Virus record (IMG/VR): IMGVR_UViG_3300021090_000024
Span: 1-55,879 of that record
DNA length: 55,879 nucleotides
DNA from: a virus
Taxonomy: Duplodnaviria; Caudoviricetes
Direction: 5' to 3' (one strand)
Positions 7,425 to 14,761 of the stretch are shown piece by piece. A model generated the notes under the pieces. The model was not told the DNA's origin and searched no databases. It saw only the letters and a list, made by a program, of their open reading frames with translations. The position numbers and the translations under genes were made by a program. The first letter of the stretch is position 1. Every line of letters starts with the position of its first letter.

Positions 7425-7950
7425 CACTAGAGTAGATGTCCGCCTTCCAAGGGACGAGATTGCGTCGATCCTGCTTATTGCGGGATTTCGTGCGACACAA
7501 CATCCGCCTCTATTCATCCGTGAATTCGAGCCAATGCAGACTGAACGTCGTTGGATGGACGGCACCCCTATAACCGAAAACCGGCTAGTGCGGGCAACGA
7601 TACAGCCCTATGGTGTAAGCTTCTCCCTATCCCCATCTATCGCCAGTCACACTGAGGAACAGCACGCTCTCAATGCCCTTGGTGCGGCCATCATGTTCAA
7701 AACCGTCATGACGCTAGCCGAGCGCGGCGGCGGTAGTGCACGACAACTTCTACTGATGGCCGATTGCTTACGCGAAAATAGTTCGGATAGTAGGCTCTTA
7801 GCGGACTATAGTATAGAGCCTCCGATACAACTCGATTTCGCAAACCTATGTCTCGGCTTTAGAACCGTTTTGCTACAAGGCATAGGCGATGCTACAAGGG
7901 GAGCATTCGATGGAGAGTACCATTCGGAACCAGAAGCGCCGCCAGCGTGA
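7414..7950 (+). CDS. Hypothetical protein
   Basis: Long ORF in the chain; start uncertain. Confidence 0.6.
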   Translation: MCCNTRVDVRLPRDEIASILLIAGFRATQHPPLFIREFEPMQTERRWMDGTPITENRLVRATIQPYGVSFSLSPSIASHTEEQHALNALGAAIMFKTVMTLAERGGGSARQLLLMADCLRENSSDSRLLADYSIEPPIQLDFANLCLGFRTVLLQGIGDATRGAFDGEYHSEPEAPPA

Positions 7951-8437
7951 GCGTGCTGCTGATCTCCTAAAACGAGTTTGCACCCATCTCGGATATGAGT
8001 GTTGGTGGTGCAAACGGCCTCTAGTCTTAGCTAGAGACATCCCTGATGTCAATGTACTCAAGCGCACTGCGGATCATCTCACCTGGCGGTCTAATCGTCA
8101 CGGGCCGATCACAAAGTTGATCGCTACTGTGGATCATGTGTTACCATTAGCAGATGGTGGCAACAATTACTATACGAACCTGGTGCCGTCCTGCGGGCCA
8201 TGTAATCGGGATCGTACCAACAGGCCAGCCATATTCGCGAGACGGTTAGAGCAATTTCGCAGAGAGGCCTACAATGCCGAGCTACAACATACCATTCAAA
8301 GGCAGGGGAGTGGACGAAGCTGGCTACCAAGCGGTAGTGGCCAAAGCACTGCGCGAAGAAACCAGCGGGCCAGTCCTCATACGACCGCGAGGCCGTATTC
8401 GCGGAAAGTCGTGGGACAGCTACAAGAGGCTTTCTAA
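7910..8437 (+). CDS. HNH endonuclease
   Basis: CWWC...TVDHVLPLADGGNNYYTNLVPSCGPCN. Confidence 0.85.
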   Translation: MESTIRNQKRRQRERAADLLKRVCTHLGYECWWCKRPLVLARDIPDVNVLKRTADHLTWRSNRHGPITKLIATVDHVLPLADGGNNYYTNLVPSCGPCNRDRTNRPAIFARRLEQFRREAYNAELQHTIQRQGSGRSWLPSGSGQSTARRNQRASPHTTARPYSRKVVGQLQEAF

Positions 8438-9054: not shown

Positions 9055-9591
9055 GTGAATATGAAGATTGACGATTGGCCAATGGTTGGCTCGGCGGTCT
9101 TTTCGCCGGATAGACGCTATCGCTATACCCTAGAACGCATGTTTACCGCGACGCCGAATAGGTGGTATGAGTATCATGCGATCTTCATTATGCTTAACCC
9201 ATCGACGGCGGATGCAGACGTGGCTGATCCGACCGTCCGGCGCTGTATAACCTATGCGTATGATTGGGAATGCAATGGCGTCACGGTCTTGAACCTCTTT
9301 GCGCTGCGCTCCACCAATCCGCGTCATCTTAAAATTGTCGATGATCCTGTAGGGCCAGGCAACGATGATGCGATCCGAGCTTCATTGGAAGAACTCAAGG
9401 CTGATCGCCCTGAGCCAATTGTAGTGTGTGCCTGGGGTGAGCACGGGGCCTATCGGTATCGAGGCTCCGCCGTCTTGAATATAGTGCGAGAAGCAAACCT
9501 TACGCCTCATTATCTGAAGCTGAATGCTTCGGGACAACCGGCCCATCCGCTCTATCTCCCCAAAAATTTGACGCCCATTCCATATGTGTGA
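9055..9591 (+). CDS. DUF1643 family protein
   Basis: YRYTL, FIMLNPSTAD, DPTVRRC, NLFALRSTNP, CAWG, PAHPLY motifs. Confidence 0.9.
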   Translation: MNMKIDDWPMVGSAVFSPDRRYRYTLERMFTATPNRWYEYHAIFIMLNPSTADADVADPTVRRCITYAYDWECNGVTVLNLFALRSTNPRHLKIVDDPVGPGNDDAIRASLEELKADRPEPIVVCAWGEHGAYRYRGSAVLNIVREANLTPHYLKLNASGQPAHPLYLPKNLTPIPYV

Positions 9592-9597
9592 TATGTT
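9568..9597 (+). promoter_or_regulatory. Sigma70-type promoter for the tRNA array
   Basis: TTGACG-N18-TATGTT with an extended TG, 26 nt before the first tRNA. Confidence 0.55.
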
Positions 9598-9623
9598 TTA
9601 ACCTCATACACGTTTTAATCAGT

Positions 9624-9699
9624 AGCGCGGTAGAGAAGTGGTTATCTCGCTGGCCCCATAAGCCGGAAATCGTGGGTTCAAATCCCACCTGCGCCACCA
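9624..9699 (+). tRNA. tRNA-Met(CAT), initiator-like
   Basis: Cloverleaf; loop CCCATAA; A1:C72 mismatch; CCA end. Confidence 0.85.
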
Positions 9700-9706
9700 A
9701 TGTGCA

Positions 9707-9791
9707 CACCGTCTCTCGCGGCGGTTAAGGGCGAAGTAGCCCAACTTCGGATAGGCGAGCCACCGCTGATCACGGTGATTAGTTTCCGAGG
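9707..9791 (+). ncRNA. Putative pseudoknotted structured RNA (element A)
   Basis: Four stems plus a loop-to-downstream pairing, paired by eye. Confidence 0.5.
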
Positions 9792-9828
9792 CATTATGGC
9801 TGGCCCCTATGTTAGGGGCAGTTGAACG

Positions 9829-9888
9829 GGGCGGTGACAAGAGGTTTGGAACCTCTTCCGGTTTCCGGTTGCAGACGGATAGCCGCCC
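9829..9888 (+). ncRNA. Putative three-way-junction RNA (element B)
   Basis: GGGCGGT/GCCGCCC closing stem with two hairpins. Confidence 0.45.
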
Positions 9889-9968
9889 AATTTTCTAGTA
9901 TGTGGGGCGCGCTGTCGTGTCGTGAGTCATTGGAGGCTCCCTTGATTTCGACTCAAACACGACAATTT

Positions 9969-10042
9969 TCCCCGTTAGTCTAGTGGTAGGACGTGTGGCT
10001 CTGAACCACAAGGGCGGAGTTCGAATCTTTGACGGGGAGCCA
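9969..10042 (+). tRNA. tRNA-Gln(CTG)
   Basis: TGTGG-CTCTGAA-CCACA arm; TTCGAAT; CCA. Confidence 0.95.
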
Positions 10043-10069
10043 GACAAATAAGAGAAAAGGAGGTTCGAC

Positions 10070-10198
10070 GTGGACGGCGATAATCGCAGCGGATGGACGC
10101 CACGCATGGTTTTTTGGAATACCTTGGGCACCGTTGTTGGTGCTGTCTGCGGAACCTCCGCCTTGGTAATTTCTGTTATAGCCCTGCTTCAATCTTAA
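10070..10198 (+). CDS. Small single-TM peptide (42 aa)
   Basis: SD AAGGAGG, GTG start; hydrophobic C-terminal helix. Confidence 0.6.
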   Translation: MDGDNRSGWTPRMVFWNTLGTVVGAVCGTSALVISVIALLQS

Positions 10199-10232
10199 AG
10201 CAGACGCACTTTTACAACTGAATAGTGAGCGC

Positions 10233-10307
10233 CCTGGCGGGGTGTGAAGGATGCATCCCTCCCTGTCAAGGAGGAGGTAGCGGGATCGATACCCGTCGCT
10301 AGGGCCA
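10233..10307 (+). tRNA. tRNA-Asp(GTC)
   Basis: CCTCC-CTGTCAA-GGAGG; T-loop ATCGATA; CCA. Confidence 0.9.
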
Positions 10308-10403
10308 GACGCATATCACGGGAAGGCGATAGCTTTAGGGGCATAAGCCTGGAAAAGCGGGTATCGTCAACGTTGGTAACGGGTTAGGCCAACAGGTTGG
10401 TTC

Positions 10404-10479
10404 GGGGGTGTAGCTCAATTGGGAGAGCAAGTGCCTTGCACGCACTAGGTTGCAGGTTCGAGACCTGTCACTTCCACCA
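10404..10479 (+). tRNA. tRNA-Ala(TGC)
   Basis: AGTGC-CTTGCAC-GCACT; G3:U70; CCA. Confidence 0.95.
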
Positions 10480-10488
10480 AGAAATAAC

Positions 10489-10591
10489 GCATGGTTCCGC
10501 ATTTCGTAAGGATGCGGCGAGGAGTCGGGAAGGTGGGAGATGATGCGCCACCGCAGCAGGGTAGCAAGTAAGTCCCTAGCGCCAACCATGC
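10489..10591 (+). ncRNA. Putative multibranch structured RNA (element E)
   Basis: GCATGGTT/AACCATGC closing stem enclosing three hairpins. Confidence 0.5.
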
Positions 10592-10595
10592 ATGA

Positions 10596-10670
10596 GCGTT
10601 CGTAGCTCAATGGCAGAGCAGGCGGCTCTTAACCGTCAGGTTCAGAGTTCAAATCTCTGCGGACGCACCA
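10596..10670 (+). tRNA. tRNA-Lys(CTT)
   Basis: GGCGG-CTCTTAA-CCGTC; CCA. Confidence 0.95.
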
Positions 10671-10695
10671 AGAAACTTGCGGCTAGAAGGGAACC

Positions 10696-10865
10696 TCCGG
10701 CTAGGTTTGTGGACTTTAAGGGTGCCGGACGAGCGGCTTGTGGAGTGGTTTACACAAGCGAAAAGAGAAGTGCAGGGACAGGTCGGGGATCGGACAGCGG
10801 ACGGTCTGATCGGGTCGGAGGCGCGGGCGCGGTACTAGCGCGAAGGGGCTATCCGACCGGCTGGA
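10696..10865 (+). ncRNA. Putative ~170-nt structured RNA (element F)
   Basis: Terminal stem plus internal 7- and 8-bp hairpins. Confidence 0.5.
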
Positions 10866-10866
10866 T

Positions 10867-10938
10867 GCGAGTGAGTCATGGCGACAAGCTGTGTCTCCAA
10901 AACCAGTGATGTGGGTTCGATTCCTACCACTCGTGCCA
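10867..10938 (+). tRNA. tRNA-Trp(CCA), atypical
   Basis: Loop CTCCAAA; short D-arm; bulged anticodon stem; normal T-arm; CCA. Confidence 0.8.
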
Positions 10939-10949
10939 AAAATAGCTAT

Positions 10950-11024
10950 TCTGAGGTAGCTCAGCGGTAGAGCGGCTGTCTGTTAAACAGTTGGTCGAAG
11001 GTTCGAATCCTTCCCTCAGAGCCA
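10950..11024 (+). tRNA. tRNA-Asn(GTT)
   Basis: GCTGT-CTGTTAA-ACAGT; CCA. Confidence 0.95.
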
Positions 11025-11034
11025 AAAAATTTAC

Positions 11035-11110
11035 GGCTCTCTAGCCCAACGGCAGAGGCAATGGCTTCAAAACCCATCCAGTCTGAGTTCAAATCTCAGG
11101 GGAGCTACCA
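11035..11110 (+). tRNA. tRNA-Leu(CAA), short variable arm
   Basis: ATGGC-TTCAAAA-CCCAT with C31:C39 mismatch; CCA. Confidence 0.8.
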
Positions 11111-11189
11111 AGAAATTTCGGGGCACTTAAAGGGGTCTGCCGCCATACGTGGCACTTATTTTTTTAGAGCAGACCCGCCCCTTTTATAC

Positions 11190-11261
11190 GGCCCTTTCTG
11201 CTAGCGGTTAGGCATCCCGTCTCTCGAATGGGCAACGCCGGTTCGAATCCGGCAAGGGCCA
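11190..11261 (+). tRNA. tRNA-Glu(CTC), no encoded CCA
   Basis: CCCGT-CTCTCGA-ATGGG; GGCCCTT/AAGGGCC acceptor. Confidence 0.9.
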
Positions 11262-11262
11262 C

Positions 11263-11337
11263 GGCCCCTTCTGTTAACGGTTAGGCAGCGTGTCCTTCAA
11301 ACACGTAACGCGGGTTCGACTCCCACAGGGGCCACCA
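11263..11337 (+). tRNA. tRNA-Glu(TTC)
   Basis: CGTGT-CCTTCAA-ACACG (C33); CCA. Confidence 0.9.
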
Positions 11338-11356
11338 GAAAAGAGGAGGAAGCAAA

Positions 11357-11521
11357 ATGAATGACGAATTGTATGATCTCATCGAAACTCTACGAGCACT
11401 ACGTGCAAGGGTGGACGACTTAAATGAACCGGAGATGGACGAGCATCGCGCGGCAGCAATTATGGAATCACTGACCAGTGCCATATCCAGTTTATTGGTA
11501 GCACGTCATCTCGTGAATTAA
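11357..11521 (+). CDS. Small helical protein (54 aa) inside the tRNA array
   Basis: SD GAGGAGG; stop abuts tRNA-Phe. Confidence 0.7.
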   Translation: MNDELYDLIETLRALRARVDDLNEPEMDEHRAAAIMESLTSAISSLLVARHLVN

Positions 11522-11597
11522 GCCGTGGTAGCTCATACGGTAGAGCGCTTGCCTGAAAAGCAAGAGGTAGCTGGATCGTTACCAGCCTGCGGCACCA
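11522..11597 (+). tRNA. tRNA-Phe(GAA)
   Basis: CTTGC-CTGAAAA-GCAAG; T-loop ATCGTTA; CCA. Confidence 0.92.
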
Positions 11598-11609
11598 AAT
11601 AATTATTAT

Positions 11610-11687
11610 GCCGGTGAAGCTCACGTTGGCTTGAGCGCCCGCCTTGTAAGCGGAAGAACGGGGGTTCGATTCCCTCTACCGGCTCCA
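11610..11687 (+). tRNA. tRNA-Thr(TGT)
   Basis: Loop CTTGTAA; CCA. Confidence 0.92.
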
Positions 11688-11688
11688 C

Positions 11689-11765
11689 GCGGGTGTGATG
11701 TTTAATGGCTAGCATGTCTGCCTTCCAAGCAGAACGAGGGGGTTCGAGTCCTCTCATCCGCACCA
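11689..11765 (+). tRNA. tRNA-Gly(TCC)
   Basis: TCTGC-CTTCCAA-GCAGA; CCA. Confidence 0.95.
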
Positions 11766-11804
11766 AGAATGGGCCAATTCACGAAAAGCATGAATTCGTG
11801 AGTA

Positions 11805-11974
11805 GGAACTCTGCGAGGGGCGCAGGAGCGCTTGAAAGTGTGTGGCTGGATCGGAGTGTCGTAAGCACCAGCCTAGCGCAACGGTGAGCGGATACGCTCA
11901 TTAAACGCAAACACGTAGAGGGTTGGGTCGACCCAATGCCGTTGACACTGGCGGGTCGGTGGTAGCAGAGTCCC
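11805..11974 (+). ncRNA. Putative ~170-nt multibranch RNA (element H)
   Basis: GGAACTCTGC/GCAGAGTCCC closing stem plus at least four internal hairpins. Confidence 0.55.
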
Positions 11975-11977
11975 AAT

Positions 11978-12065
11978 GCCAGTGCGCCGGAGATGGGGAG
12001 CCGGAGCGGTCTGTAAAACCGCCGCCCTTCGGGGCTAGTAGGTTCAAATCCTATCGCTGGCACCA
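11978..12065 (+). tRNA. tRNA-Tyr(GTA)
   Basis: GCGGT-CTGTAAA-ACCGC; long variable arm; CCA. Confidence 0.95.
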
Positions 12066-12074
12066 AAAAGTTTC

Positions 12075-12149
12075 GCCCGCTTAGCTCAGCGGAAGAGCAT
12101 GTTCCTTACAAGAACGGGGCCGGAGGTTCGAATCCTTCAGCGGGCACCA
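12075..12149 (+). tRNA. tRNA-Val(TAC)
   Basis: TGTTC-CTTACAA-GAACG; CCA. Confidence 0.95.
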
Positions 12150-12236
12150 AGTCAAAGCGGGTCTTCATCAGGTAGATGCAATGCGCACCCTGAACCAGCA
12201 AACATGATAGTGAAAGTGGAGATAAGAGACTATCTT

Positions 12237-12314
12237 GCCCTTGATGCTCGATTGGACAGAGAAACGGAGTTCTAACCCGTATAAAAGTGGGTTCGAATCC
12301 CACCGAGGGCACCA
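12237..12314 (+). tRNA. tRNA-Arg(TCT)
   Basis: ACGGA-GTTCTAA-CCCGT; CCA. Confidence 0.85.
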
Positions 12315-12315
12315 C

Positions 12316-12400
12316 GCCGGTATGACGGAATAGGCAGACGTAGCGGTCTTAAAAACCGTGGCCTTCGGGCATGTAGGTTCGACCCCTACTATCGGCACCA
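12316..12400 (+). tRNA. tRNA-Leu(TAA)
   Basis: GCGGT-CTTAAAA-ACCGT; long variable arm; CCA. Confidence 0.95.
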
Positions 12401-12413
12401 GAAAATTGAATAC

Positions 12414-12491
12414 GGCTTTCTATCCCAATTGGCAGAGGAGACAGTCTTAGAAACTGCTAATGTCTCGGTTCGAGTCCGAGGAAAGCCACCA
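12414..12491 (+). tRNA. tRNA-Leu(TAG), short variable arm
   Basis: ACAGT-CTTAGAA-ACTGC; CCA. Confidence 0.88.
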
Positions 12492-12497
12492 AGAATT

Positions 12498-12572
12498 AGC
12501 CCTTTAGCTCAGTGGTAGAGCATCGGCCTTATAAGCCGGAGGCCGTTGGTTCGAATCCAACAAGGGCAACCA
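12498..12572 (+). tRNA. tRNA-Ile(TAT)
   Basis: TCGGC-CTTATAA-GCCGG; A1:A72 mismatch; CCA. Confidence 0.88.
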
Positions 12573-12581
12573 GACAACTTT

Positions 12582-12668
12582 GGAGGAGTCGGCATGGGAA
12601 ACGCCAAACTGTCCTGAAAACAGCGGGCCGTAAAAAGCCAGGGGGTTCGAATCCCTCCTCCTCCGCCA
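12582..12668 (+). tRNA. tRNA-Ser(TGA)
   Basis: Loop CCTGAAA (C33); long variable arm; G73; CCA. Confidence 0.9.
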
Positions 12669-12743
12669 GCCCGCTTAGCTCAATGGCAGAGCATCCGCCT
12701 TTTAAGCGGTCGGTTGTAGGTTCGACTCCTACAGCGGGCACCA
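12669..12743 (+). tRNA. tRNA-Lys(TTT)
   Basis: Loop CTTTTAA; CCA. Confidence 0.95.
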
Positions 12744-12750
12744 GAAAATG

Positions 12751-12848
12751 GGAATCCTCAACTCCTGCGTGCAGGGTAGGGGCTACAGTGACTGGTCAGC
12801 ATTGTAGCAATAAGGGATGAGGCAATTCCGGTACGTGGAGAAGCCGGA
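12751..12848 (+). ncRNA. Putative pseudoknotted RNA (element J)
   Basis: GGAAT-CCTCA/TGAGG-ATTCC stem, 9-bp hairpin and long-range pairing. Confidence 0.5.
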
Positions 12849-12854
12849 TAACAC

Positions 12855-12930
12855 GCCCTTTTAGCTCAGCGAACAGAGCAGCGGTCTTCGAAACCGCGTG
12901 TCGGGGGTTTGAATCCCTCAAAGGGCACCA
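12855..12930 (+). tRNA. tRNA-Arg(TCG)
   Basis: GCGGT-CTTCGAA-ACCGC; T-loop TTTGAAT; CCA. Confidence 0.92.
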
Positions 12931-12935
12931 GACAA

Positions 12936-13010
12936 GCCTGCTTAGCTCAGGGGTAGAGCACTGATCTGATACGTCAGTTGTCGGTGGTTCAAATCCATCA
13001 GCAGGCACCA
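12936..13010 (+). tRNA. tRNA-Ile(GAT)
   Basis: CTGAT-CTGATAC-GTCAG; CCA. Confidence 0.95.
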
Positions 13011-13068
13011 ATAAATGATCGTGTTGTCATCTTGACTGTTTTAGTGATTCTGACAACATAAGCATATA

Positions 13069-13143
13069 CGGGGTGTGGGGCAGCGGTAGCCTACTTGATT
13101 TGGAATCAAGATGTCGCTGGTTCGAATCCAGCCACCCCGACCA
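13069..13143 (+). tRNA. tRNA-Pro(TGG)
   Basis: CTTGA-TTTGGAA-TCAAG; CCA. Confidence 0.95.
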
Positions 13144-13195
13144 ATACTTCAAAATCCCTCATACTTGAGGGGCAATGCAGTAACATGTTCACCAA

Positions 13196-13272
13196 CGAGA
13201 GAGTGGTCTAAATGGTTAAGACGATAGATTGTGGCTCTGTAAATGCGAGTTCGAATCTCGCCCTCTCGACCA
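13196..13272 (+). tRNA. tRNA-His(GTG), atypical acceptor stem
   Basis: ATAGA-TTGTGGC-TCTGT; acceptor pairs only with one bulged A; A discriminator. Confidence 0.8.
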
Positions 13273-13679
13273 AAAAATGCACGAAATGTGGCCTCATCAA
13301 ATCGATTGAGGATTTCTTCTTGCGCAGTGATCGGTCTATGACACATCGCCCTGAATGCAAAAAATGCCACGGTGAGCAAACAAAACGTAATCATCGAATG
13401 CGTCCTGGCCGACATTTGAGGCCCCAATACGGTATAACTGAAGAGCAATATCAGACTATGCTCAAAGCACAAAATGGTGTGTGCGCTATTTGTCAACAAA
13501 ATCCAAAAGATCGGCGCCTAGCAGTAGATCACGATCACAGAACTATGCGCGTGAGAGGACTGCTTTGCAATACGTGCAATCGCGCTATTGGTCAGATGGG
13601 AGATGATCCAGTACGGCTTCGACGCGCGGCAGAATATTTAGGAGAGGTGGCAGAGAGGTTGAATGCACCGGATTGCTAA
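13212..13679 (+). CDS. Endonuclease VII-like (beta-beta-alpha-Me) endonuclease
   Basis: YGITEEQY..QNGVCAIC..LAVDHDH..VRGLLCNTCNRAIG..DDP..LRRAAEYL; N-terminal CxxC..CxxC. Confidence 0.9.
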   Translation: MVKTIDCGSVNASSNLALSTKKCTKCGLIKSIEDFFLRSDRSMTHRPECKKCHGEQTKRNHRMRPGRHLRPQYGITEEQYQTMLKAQNGVCAICQQNPKDRRLAVDHDHRTMRVRGLLCNTCNRAIGQMGDDPVRLRRAAEYLGEVAERLNAPDC

Positions 13680-13730
13680 TCCGGCAGGCCCGCAAGGGCC
13701 TCGTGGGTTCGAATCCCACCCTCTCCGCCA
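13641..13730 (+). tRNA. tRNA-Ser(GCT)
   Basis: CCGGA-TTGCTAA-TCCGG; long variable arm; CCA. Confidence 0.95.
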
Positions 13731-13899
13731 AGAATATGTCGGGAAATCAGCACATTGCAGGAATGTCTGAAAATGAGCACAAAAAGCGAACGCAGGGAGG
13801 CCATCCGCCGTAAGCGGCGCGGCCACCGCGTGCATCAAAGCTTCTTGCGCGTAACACGTGCACTGGCTGAGCGTTTTAAGCTACAGAGGAGAAAACAGA

Positions 13900-14127
13900 A
13901 TGTTCAAATACCTGATTAGGCATCTCATGCCATACGCCGTCCGCACTGTCATCATGGCCGGATTGCTTATCGGCGTCCTACACGAGGCGGGGATCGCCAC
14001 TTTGCTCACTTTGGGGTTGATTTTCATGTCTATTGAGGCTCATCGACTGAATCACGGTATTCAAGCGCTTCGCGGCATGGTTTTTGCACCAATTAGGCAA
14101 AATAATCCCCGTTTTCGCATAAAATAG
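13900..14127 (+). CDS. Small membrane protein
   Basis: SD GAGGAG; two hydrophobic segments. Confidence 0.6.
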   Translation: MFKYLIRHLMPYAVRTVIMAGLLIGVLHEAGIATLLTLGLIFMSIEAHRLNHGIQALRGMVFAPIRQNNPRFRIK

Positions 14128-14433
14128 CCTCAAAAAGGCGCAAAAAGGTAGAAAAACGCTCCAAAGTGACCATTTAGGGTCGCCAAGGGGCGTTTTTCTT
14201 ATGGTAAAGTACCAAAAATCGTTTTTAAGGGTGCGCTGTACTACCTCTTATGTGGCTGTCCGAGGCAGGAAACTACAGCTATACCGCCCCACACAAGGCC
14301 TCTGGAAGGCCTTCCAAAGCCCTTCACGCGGTTTAACCTACCAATGTAGGCCTCCGCACCGACCATGCACATTCTGGATGCAGCAGCGGTCGGACAAAAT
14401 TCACCTGTTTAGCCGCCATTCCCTGGCAAATAG

Positions 14434-14475
14434 TCGGCTCAGCACTAGCGGCTGCGGACTTGAATCACTTATATT
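14434..14475 (+). promoter_or_regulatory. Phage promoter motif copy 1
   Basis: TCGGCTCA-N4-TAGCGG-N18-TATATT upstream of the lysis-type cassette. Confidence 0.7.
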
Positions 14476-14509
14476 CAGATTACAAAAGCACGCACCAAAC
14501 GGAGTTTCC

Positions 14510-14761
14510 ATGATGAACACCATTCTTGATGTCGCCCCAAAGCAGCCACGGCAGATCGCACGGGAGCGATTCCCAACTGAGGCGCGCATAATTATGGCGG
14601 AAGACGATCTCGACGGACATGAGCGTATTTTCAATGCGCTTGTTCAGCAAACCGCGATTTTGAATGCCACTATGTTCAAATTGTTAAGCGCTATAATCGT
14701 AGCTATTCTCGGAATAGCGGGTGACATAGCAATTCGCATACTTCCAAAACTACTCGAATAA
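14510..14761 (+). CDS. Holin/XhlA-like membrane protein
   Basis: SD GGAG; coiled coil plus C-terminal TM; next to the endolysin cassette. Confidence 0.55.
   Translation: MMNTILDVAPKQPRQIARERFPTEARIIMAEDDLDGHERIFNALVQQTAILNATMFKLLSAIIVAILGIAGDIAIRILPKLLE

Follow-up and report, generated by a model that had tools for sequence, protein, structure and literature searches.

An endonuclease VII-type core flush between the tRNA-His and tRNA-Ser genes of a phage tRNA array, with candidate start and stop codon inside the flanking tRNAs

Introduction

Homing endonucleases must stay at very low levels lest they cut their own phage, and to our knowledge the throttling of free-standing homing endonucleases is understood in a few cases only. 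Nuclease genes recur in the transfer RNA (tRNA) clusters of phages, as in T4 and T5, and tRNA maturation has been proposed as a brake on them. The present analysis concerns an open reading frame (ORF) for an endonuclease VII (Endo VII)-type nuclease that lies between the tRNA-His and tRNA-Ser genes of IMG/VR virus record IMGVR_UViG_3300021090_000024 (Duplodnaviria; Caudoviricetes). The whole record, a linear contig of 55,879 bp with a CheckV completeness estimate of 53%, was analysed and is called the window below. The best explanation of the locus is a free-standing gene that resembles a homing endonuclease gene, belongs to the Endo VII / Hpy99I type and has been trimmed to its conserved core between the two tRNAs.

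In the case of T4, the tRNA cluster contains segB, which is transcribed within a 1.75-kb tRNA precursor (PMC2330249). According to the same account, the Shine-Dalgarno (SD) sequence and start codon of segB are predicted to lie within a hairpin quoted at 20.2 kcal, and the maturation of tRNA-Arg cuts between the last codon of segB and its stop codon. That account, published in 2008, proposes control of the nuclease through processing of the tRNA precursor; the hairpin and the processing cut may both restrain expression, and the same is proposed for the tRNA-cluster nucleases (F-Tfl) of T5 (PMC2330249). In the T4 record, segB starts 41 nucleotides (nt) past tRNA-Ile and ends 5 nt before tRNA-Arg. 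The window gene shares with segB the placing of a nuclease gene between same-strand tRNA genes with minimal spacers. However, SegB belongs to the GIY-YIG enzymes and its gene has an SD sequence, start and stop of its own, whereas the window gene encodes an Endo VII / His-Me finger protein and overlaps tRNAs at both ends. Furthermore, the occluding structure in the window is the tRNA itself, and homing, shown for SegB, is putative for the window gene. Judged from its sequence, the window gene is an analogue of segB and not a member of the Seg family.

In the T5 record (NC_005859), hegC (F-TflI) extends 14 nt into tRNA-Ser2, hegD (F-TflII) extends 23 nt into tRNA-Gln2, and T5.069 extends 24 nt into tRNA-Asn. 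At the other end, hegC starts 17 nt past tRNA-Leu1, T5.069 starts 21 nt past tRNA-Cys, and hegA starts 23 nt past tRNA-Ile2; hegD follows the coding sequence (CDS) T5.062, not a tRNA. In T5, as in the window, the stop codon of the nuclease is supplied by a downstream same-strand tRNA, here 37–39 nt into it. There are nevertheless significant differences between the two arrangements. The T5 enzymes are HNH nucleases, another family, and the starts of hegC and T5.069 do not overlap a tRNA, whereas in the window the overlap extends as far as the anticodon loop and the candidate start likewise lies in a tRNA.

In bacteria, Hudson, Lau and Williams (2014) report 379 same-orientation overlaps between a CDS and a tRNA or tmRNA gene in 2031 bacterial genome projects, and tRNA maturation is predicted in that survey to sever the overlapping CDS from its stop, generating a non-stop mRNA (PMC4131195).

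Results

Fit of the nuclease ORF between the two tRNAs

The window contains 24 tRNA genes (ARAGORN), all on the plus strand and all within positions 9624–13730, of which 22 are confirmed by Rfam at the gathering score. The last two tRNAs of the array are His(GTG) and Ser(GCT), with a spacer of 368 nt between them. The nuclease ORF is thereby located inside the array, between same-strand tRNA genes, and the features of the locus are arranged as follows.

13185–13211, plus strand: in-frame mini-ORF of 8 codons, from ATG 13185 to TAA 13209–13211, abutting ATG 13212 (TAAATG)
13196–13272, plus strand: tRNA-His(GTG), called by ARAGORN (Rfam RF00005 at 13197–13268, 50.6 bits), housing the candidate SD sequence and start codon of the nuclease ORF
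13197–13203, plus strand: SD-like sequence GAGAGAG, with 8 nt to ATG 13212; it forms the 5' strand of the acceptor stem of tRNA-His
13212–13679, plus strand: longest ORF of the Endo VII-type nuclease, 155 residues, from the ATG in the D loop of tRNA-His to the TAA in the anticodon loop of tRNA-Ser
13278–13640, plus strand: conserved core, consisting of an N-terminal zinc repeat followed by the Endo VII His-Me finger domain up to a conserved Tyr-Leu
13641–13730, plus strand: tRNA-Ser(GCT), called by ARAGORN (Rfam 13641–13727, 62 bits), anticodon 13675–13677; the final 12 codons of the ORF and its stop take up the first 39 nt of this tRNA
13677–13679, plus strand: TAA stop codon, covering anticodon base 36 and positions 37–38 of tRNA-Ser

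ATG 13212–13214 directly follows the in-frame TAA 13209–13211 and is the only canonical in-frame start upstream of the first Cys. The original prediction, made from the letters of this DNA, had placed this codon in the D loop of tRNA-His with the acceptor-stem GAGAGAG ahead of it, and both placements agree with the sequence, the ARAGORN calls and the ORF list. It had also put the first CxxC motif right after the CCA of tRNA-His, and the first Cys codon (13278–13280) is indeed 5 nt past the CCA (13270–13272). Only two Lys codons separate the CCA from this Cys, and the first of them starts on the A of the CCA. The predicted meeting of the TAA with the GCT anticodon loop of tRNA-Ser was borne out as well, the stop sharing the third anticodon base. 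Altogether, the ORF overlaps tRNA-His by 61 nt and tRNA-Ser by 39 nt.

At the downstream edge, the domain closes with a conserved Tyr-Leu whose last base, 13640, directly precedes tRNA-Ser. The nuclease core lacks a start codon, a stop codon, a ribosome-binding site and a tail of its own. Meanwhile, the ORF contains no frameshift and no internal stop, and all catalytic and zinc residues are kept.

The part of this arrangement that is not random is the conserved core filling the 368-nt spacer flush at both ends. Selection keeping the protein explains such a core more easily than random decay does. The exact positions of the ATG and the TAA, by contrast, are at the level expected by chance for an ORF butted against tRNAs. 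The control for chance was the array's own 24 tRNAs in three frames each, giving 72 combinations. A frame entering a tRNA runs for a median of 27 nt to a stop, with 16 of the 72 stopping at nucleotide 10, and the 39 nt found here are ordinary.

The starts of homologous proteins were compared in 21 homologues, hand-picked for high coverage from 120 listed matches. The initial Met is located 3–5 residues before the first Cys in 15 of them and 9–27 residues before it in the other six (6/21). Because the Met of most homologues precedes the first Cys by 3–5 residues, the usual start of the family falls within the 3' end of tRNA-His, in the 3' strand of the acceptor stem. The extension of 22 residues before the first Cys also has precedents among the homologues. 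A scar left by a replaced tRNA was considered and rejected: a direct-repeat search over 9500–14600 showed only the T-arm and acceptor motifs that the tRNAs share, and next to the ORF neither tRNA-His nor tRNA-Ser has a partial copy.

Support for the sequence from other assemblies

The sequence of the locus was compared with Logan contigs of sediment metagenome runs from other studies (runs X2, X3 and X4). In X2, positions 12800–13344 are covered with one difference and 13346–13730 with none. In X3, positions 12982–13241, 13252–13402 and 13377–13655 are covered with two, no and no differences, respectively. The ORF sequence is not an assembly slip. Within the ORF, the only variants are a synonymous C>T at 13292 (Gly27) and an A>G at 13345, which gives H45R in one of two X2 contigs. 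An assembly or indel error whose correction would restore the out-of-frame ATG 13277 was also rejected; this ATG overlaps the first Cys codon, and the two other assemblies agree with the window.

Over the wider interval 12800–14200, near-identical phage DNA is present in whole in X2, for the most part in X3 and in parts in X4. The 3' half of tRNA-Ser shows a very high depth, which comes from the tRNA-Ser genes of other organisms.

Protein family and predicted structure

The Endo VII likeness claimed in the original prediction holds at the level of domain profiles. Residues 68–143 match Pfam Endonuclease_7 (PF02945) with an E-value of 1.5e-27 and 95.8 bits against a cut-off of 23.6, covering profile positions 3–80 of 82, and the protein also matches phrog_2633 'endonuclease VII' (E 7e-41). 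Endonuclease_7 is the only domain exceeding the cut-off in the Pfam scan, which shows no GIY-YIG domain. In an alignment of 22 sequences (the ORF and its 21 homologues), all 15 invariant columns are present in the ORF. The N-terminal zinc repeat contains the invariant C23 and C26 and the nearly invariant C49 and C52. The catalytic residues D106, H107, H109 and N123 are invariant, as are C91, C94, C119 and C122 of the Cys4 zinc site, for which metal binding is predicted. In T4 endonuclease VII, the catalytic residues of the beta-beta-alpha-metal fold are given as D40, H41 and N62 (PMC2699513).

The AlphaFold model has a mean predicted local distance difference test (pLDDT) score of 87.6, with values above 90 for residues 21–60 and 71–150 and about 60 for residues 1–19. 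A confident unit of four strands and a helix is formed by residues 20–62, and the stretch of residues 20–73 as a whole shows four strands plus helices. The last helix (residues 133–150) continues into the tail encoded by tRNA-Ser, with a pLDDT of 97 for residues 141–150.

Searched against the PDB, the alignment profile matches both units of Hpy99I (3fc3; E 3.5e-17), although the first unit is weak (14.8 bits, i-Evalue 0.23), and only the catalytic unit of T4 endonuclease VII (E 4.3e-13; T4 residues 9–73 of 157). By Foldseek, Hpy99I is the top match (E 2.5e-6, TM-score 0.35), followed by T4 endonuclease VII (E 9e-4); the TM-scores of the two are low, at 0.29–0.35. In the description of Hpy99I, two beta4-alpha2 repeats each hold a zinc ion by two CXXC motifs, and the N-terminal repeat enters the major groove and reads the bases (PMC2699513). 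The window protein appears to have both zinc repeats in common with Hpy99I, although the first matches only weakly by sequence and the TM-score is low. It lacks the beta-barrel of Hpy99I, however, and is not a restriction enzyme. With T4 endonuclease VII (1en7, 2qnc) it shares the catalytic repeat, the Asp-His...Asn residues and the Cys4 site, but the C-terminal dimerisation domain is absent and there is no sign of junction resolution. A Holliday-junction resolvase, as T4 endonuclease VII proper, was accordingly rejected, since only T4 residues 9–73 match and the C-terminal helical dimerisation domain is missing. By analogy with Hpy99I, the N-terminal zinc unit of the ORF would be a DNA-reading module, and a site-specific enzyme would need a start upstream of C23, because the matching repeat of Hpy99I reads bases.

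The closest named relatives are the gp13.5-type 'endonuclease VII' proteins of T7-like phages (gene 13.5 of phiYeO3-12), with 42–47% identity over 99–100% of the 124-residue core. They have the same two-repeat architecture and are likewise small free-standing genes. Compared with the window gene, they are located between structural genes, with their own starts and stops and no tRNA context. On these similarities, the protein is classed with the DNA endonucleases of the Endo VII / Hpy99I type, as an ordinary member. The original prediction also suggested a nuclease coupled to tRNA processing; taken to mean an enzyme with tRNA as its substrate, this found no support.

Relatives of the locus

Searches for related loci yielded little beyond the protein family itself. 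By blastn, positions 12800–14200 have only short tRNA matches in the phage record collection. Protein scans of IMG/VR for relatives of this phage returned one locus for the nuclease (48% identity), two for the terminase (29% and 23%) and none for the upstream gene. A 20-nt pattern from the 3' end of tRNA-His gave a single chance match in IMG/VR, within a coding region and not in a tRNA, and a 24-nt pattern from the same end gave none in the metagenome contigs. Among the metagenome contigs, the nuclease scan found eight loci with at most 55% identity, none of the eight having a tRNA in flanks of up to 2 kb. No empty His–Ser junction was found in the phage records, the IMG/VR contigs or the metagenome contigs. 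The product of the ORF itself is not among 5.8 billion predicted proteins, in which the best match is 59% identical.

A general association of this nuclease family with tRNAs was rejected, a tRNA being present within 1.5 kb in only 2 of the best 80 of 595 IMG/VR relatives. Both of these relatives have a tRNA-Leu about 50 nt downstream, and neither overlaps it.

Other features of the tRNA array and the window

Nearly all long ORFs of the window are on the plus strand, and its proteins include a terminase, a portal, a head protease and an endolysin. Another genetic code or a suppressor tRNA was ruled out: the array has no suppressor among its 24 tRNAs, and with table 11 the genes are read normally. 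Two small ORFs with strong SD sites are located in the array.

10070–10198, plus strand: ORF of 42 residues between array tRNAs, start GTG 10070, SD -12.3 kcal/mol
11357–11521, plus strand: ORF of 54 residues, start ATG 11357, SD -12.0 kcal/mol, beginning 19 nt past tRNA-Glu(ttc) and with its TAA flush with tRNA-Phe

Because these two inter-tRNA ORFs have strong SD sites, the array transcripts look as if they double as mRNA. Tight packing against tRNAs is a local rule in the array. The product of 10070–10198 resembles a small membrane protein.

The first 5 nt after most tRNAs of the array (window 9700–13735) form similar A-rich trailers (AGAAA, GAAAA, AAAAA, GACAA, AGAAT), and this shared trailer may be a common processing site. 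The two Lys codons ahead of the first Cys of the nuclease consist of such an A-rich trailer.

The acceptor end of tRNA-His is odd. The 77-nt frame of ARAGORN pairs C13196 with G13268, leaving A13269 as the discriminator before the CCA. This requires either an A-C mismatch and one extra nucleotide between the acceptor and D stems, or an acceptor stem of 8 bp with a T stem of 4 bp. Bacterial tRNA-His usually has a G-1:C73 pair; when the sequence was read by eye, this pair was not found in the tRNA-His of the window.

Two further tRNA-like elements are situated on the plus strand of the array. The element at 12582–12664, not called by ARAGORN, occupies part of the 96 nt that separate tRNA-Ile(tat) from tRNA-Lys(ttt). 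Besides a T arm and a CCA end, it has an acceptor stem GGAGGAG/CTCCTCC and a variable arm that is long. Read by eye, its anticodon loop contains TGA, which would make it Ser(UGA); it is below the Rfam threshold, with 28 bits on the tRNA-Sec model (E 0.016). The element at 10867–10935, in the 279-nt gap between tRNA-Lys(ctt) and tRNA-Asn, is also below threshold (RF00005, 25.5 bits against a cut-off of 29). It contains a T arm and an acceptor end, after which comes the A-rich trailer that it shares with the other tRNAs.

A promoter-like site is present at 9568–9597 (plus strand), 27 nt before the first tRNA of the array, and a terminator-like hairpin with a T run is present at 11138–11154 (plus strand), inside the array between tRNA-Leu(caa) and tRNA-Glu(ctc). 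Neither promoter-like nor terminator-like sites are more numerous than in shuffled sequence. About 1.2 kb upstream of the array there is a separate endonuclease gene of the HNH type (7889–8434, plus strand, 182 residues; phrog_338, E 4e-11). An upstream HNH gene is also reported for long tRNA arrays of bacteria (PMC8421152).

Discussion

Translation from the unprocessed precursor

The reading favoured here, which we hold tentatively and which falls slightly short of probable, is low-level translation of the nuclease from the unprocessed tRNA precursor, starting at ATG 13212. The tRNA array would be transcribed as a single precursor, and a few ribosomes would engage the nascent RNA at GAGAGAG/ATG 13212 while the 3' strand of the acceptor stem is still to be made and the tRNA is open. 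The product would have 155 residues, of which the first 22 and the last 12 would be encoded by tRNA sequence. Translation would be ended by the folding of tRNA-His, by a cut in the A-rich trailer past the CCA and by the cut of ribonuclease P (RNase P) at 13640/13641. The latter would leave a non-stop message and send the ribosomes to trans-translation. The dose of nuclease would thus be very low, taking the control proposed for T4 segB one step further. In favour of this reading are the complete core, the SD-like GAGAGAG at 8-nt spacing, the precedents for a 22-residue extension among the homologues, the signs that array transcripts double as mRNA, and the cases of T5 and of T4, where the segB hairpin is quoted at 20.2 kcal against -22 kcal/mol for the fold of tRNA-His here.

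The 8-codon frame ending in TAAATG may help to open the acceptor stem. Its start, ATG 13185, has an SD-like GAGGGG 12 nt upstream (-7.6 kcal/mol), and a ribosome completing this mini-ORF would have unpaired the acceptor stem on its 5' side; the mini-ORF may be a coupling device or may be chance.

According to the original prediction, tRNA folding and maturation would hide or remove both the start and the stop. For the stop this logic stands, since the RNase P cut at 13640/13641 would sever the ORF from its stop whichever start is used. For the start, use of ATG 13212 is plausible only, its SD sequence being mediocre and inside the tRNA fold. The stop would be inside tRNA-Ser with an internal start as well, and therefore dependence on the unprocessed precursor would hold with either start. 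The strictest form of this reading is doubtful: a homing endonuclease without translation signals of its own, translated only from the nascent unprocessed precursor, from the AUG in the D loop to the stop in the anticodon loop. In that form, the nuclease dose would be set by a race between ribosome loading on the one hand and tRNA folding and cleavage by RNase E and RNase P on the other, and every precursor that is translated would mean two tRNAs matured late or lost.

Candidate starts and rival explanations

Pairing with the anti-Shine-Dalgarno sequence was scored at 38 hand-listed likely starts of the window, with a median of -5.4 kcal/mol; one of the 38 (13901) had been entered one base off and was scored on TGT. 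Besides ATG 13212, two internal starts come into question.

13308–13322, plus strand: internal start TTG 13320–13322, with GAGG at 13308–13311 and an 8-nt spacer, -6.0 kcal/mol; product of 119 residues without the first CxxC
13338–13340, plus strand: internal start ATG (M43, 'MTHRPEC'), -1.1 kcal/mol, no SD sequence; product of 113 residues

Several observations weigh against translation from ATG 13212. Its pairing energy of -4.7 kcal/mol is equalled by about 18–25% of random positions, and its SD sequence is paired in the acceptor stem of a tRNA with a folding energy of -22 kcal/mol, while the ATG itself is in an unpaired loop. In the 72 combinations of the chance control, an ATG inside the tRNA with a frame open to the tRNA 3' end occurs 12 times, and an ATG, GTG or TTG occurs 33 times. 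The survey of Hudson, Lau and Williams treats bacterial CDSs whose start lies within an upstream tRNA as probable errors of start calling (PMC4131195); the genomes surveyed are bacterial, however, and in the window the domain begins 5 nt past the tRNA, so that a later start truncates the domain. A truncated product could still cut DNA, because many family members of about 100 residues (97–110) among the 120 listed matches consist of the catalytic domain alone, without the N-terminal repeat. Phage relatives that could show conservation of the frame were found neither in the phage records nor in IMG/VR nor in the metagenome contigs. No joints across the ORF of the kind that a nuclease-less allele would give are present in runs X2, X3 and X4, so homing is putative. 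Usable RNA was likewise not found, as run X16 covers parts of tRNA-Ser only, with 2–6 mismatches, and its reads probably derive from other organisms. The use of ATG 13212 is plausible, and the pairing energy of none of the three candidate starts is decisive.

An internal start, at TTG 13320 or ATG 13338, is the less likely of the rival explanations and rather improbable in itself. It would yield a nuclease of 119 or 113 residues with a complete catalytic domain and half of the N-terminal zinc repeat. The original prediction had named a downstream start at MTHRPEC as the alternative; that codon, ATG 13338, has no SD sequence, whereas TTG 13320, which it did not name, has the best SD sequence of the three candidates, equalled by about 10% of random positions, and lies outside the tRNA fold. 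The Pfam domain is complete downstream of TTG 13320, and small members with the catalytic domain alone exist in the family. A route to this start can also be imagined. After 3' processing of tRNA-His, the out-of-frame ATG 13277 could sit almost at the 5' end of the RNA, and its 10-codon frame, which ends with TGA 13307–13309 on the GAGG, could feed ribosomes to TTG 13320. An internal promoter was rejected: a single weak consensus match is present at 13338–13365, but the region contains 4 promoter-like matches against 4.2 expected in shuffled sequence. However, this product would carry an orphan CxxC (C49, C52) and would lose the zinc site from the very unit that reads DNA in Hpy99I. The GAGG forms Glu-Asp codons in a conserved stretch and may be incidental, and the flush preservation of C23 and C26 would have no explanation. 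The internal product would, moreover, still need the stop in tRNA-Ser.

The other rival, unlikely but the stronger of the two, is a recently dead remnant from which no protein is made. Deletions would have taken the SD sequence and ATG on one side and the tail and stop on the other, the flanking tRNAs would have bounded these deletions, and the open frame would be due to chance. The left deletion was possibly aided by a short match between the tRNA end with its trailer, ACCAAAAA, and a native gene start encoding Thr-Lys-Lys. Read in frame, ACCAAAAA gives Thr-Lys-Lys, which is close to how one homologue natively begins, and the left edge could therefore have been set by a short-homology deletion with no need of selection. 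A remnant would also fit the tRNA sequence that occupies the native start of the family, the chance-level frequency of in-tRNA starts and the ordinary position of the stop, as well as the absence of the product from the predicted proteins. Furthermore, decay after fixation is an established part of the homing endonuclease life cycle, and no nuclease-less allele was seen in the three DNA runs. Against this, the frame shows none of the marks of decay. The original prediction had listed a pseudogene as a possible refutation of its proposal, and on this point the evidence is divided: frameshifts, internal stops and lost catalytic or zinc residues are all absent, but the gene's own start and stop are missing, and recent inactivation is possible. 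Both trims, however, halt exactly at the edges of the core, which is rare for random deletions, and in the model the last helix continues with confidence through the tail encoded by tRNA-Ser. Translation from the unprocessed precursor is favoured over both rivals because both trims end exactly at the core edges and because a site-specific enzyme needs C23 and C26.

Meaning of the arrangement

Two elements of the arrangement are already known, namely a stop inside the next tRNA, from T5, and a self-limiting nuclease tied to precursor processing, from T4 segB. The apparently new element, unusual and unproven, is the loss of the gene's own start, which leaves the only full-length start inside the upstream tRNA. 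The locus is a limiting case of the T4 and T5 arrangement: it retains no untranslated sequence, and its frame reaches into functional tRNAs on either side. In either case it carries a warning for annotation. Gene prediction with tRNA masking will overlook or shorten genes of this kind, and the product of the ORF is missing from the predicted proteins searched.

If the start inside the tRNA is not used, the locus would be a snapshot of the first step in the decay of a nuclease gene, bounded by selection on the flanking tRNAs. If it is used, the D-loop and acceptor sequences of tRNA-His would be under a dual constraint, as RNA and as coding sequence. The locus would then be a clear case of a bacterial-type tRNA doubling as ribosome-binding site and coding sequence, and would provide a simple one-transcript system in which the competition between translation and tRNA processing can be measured.

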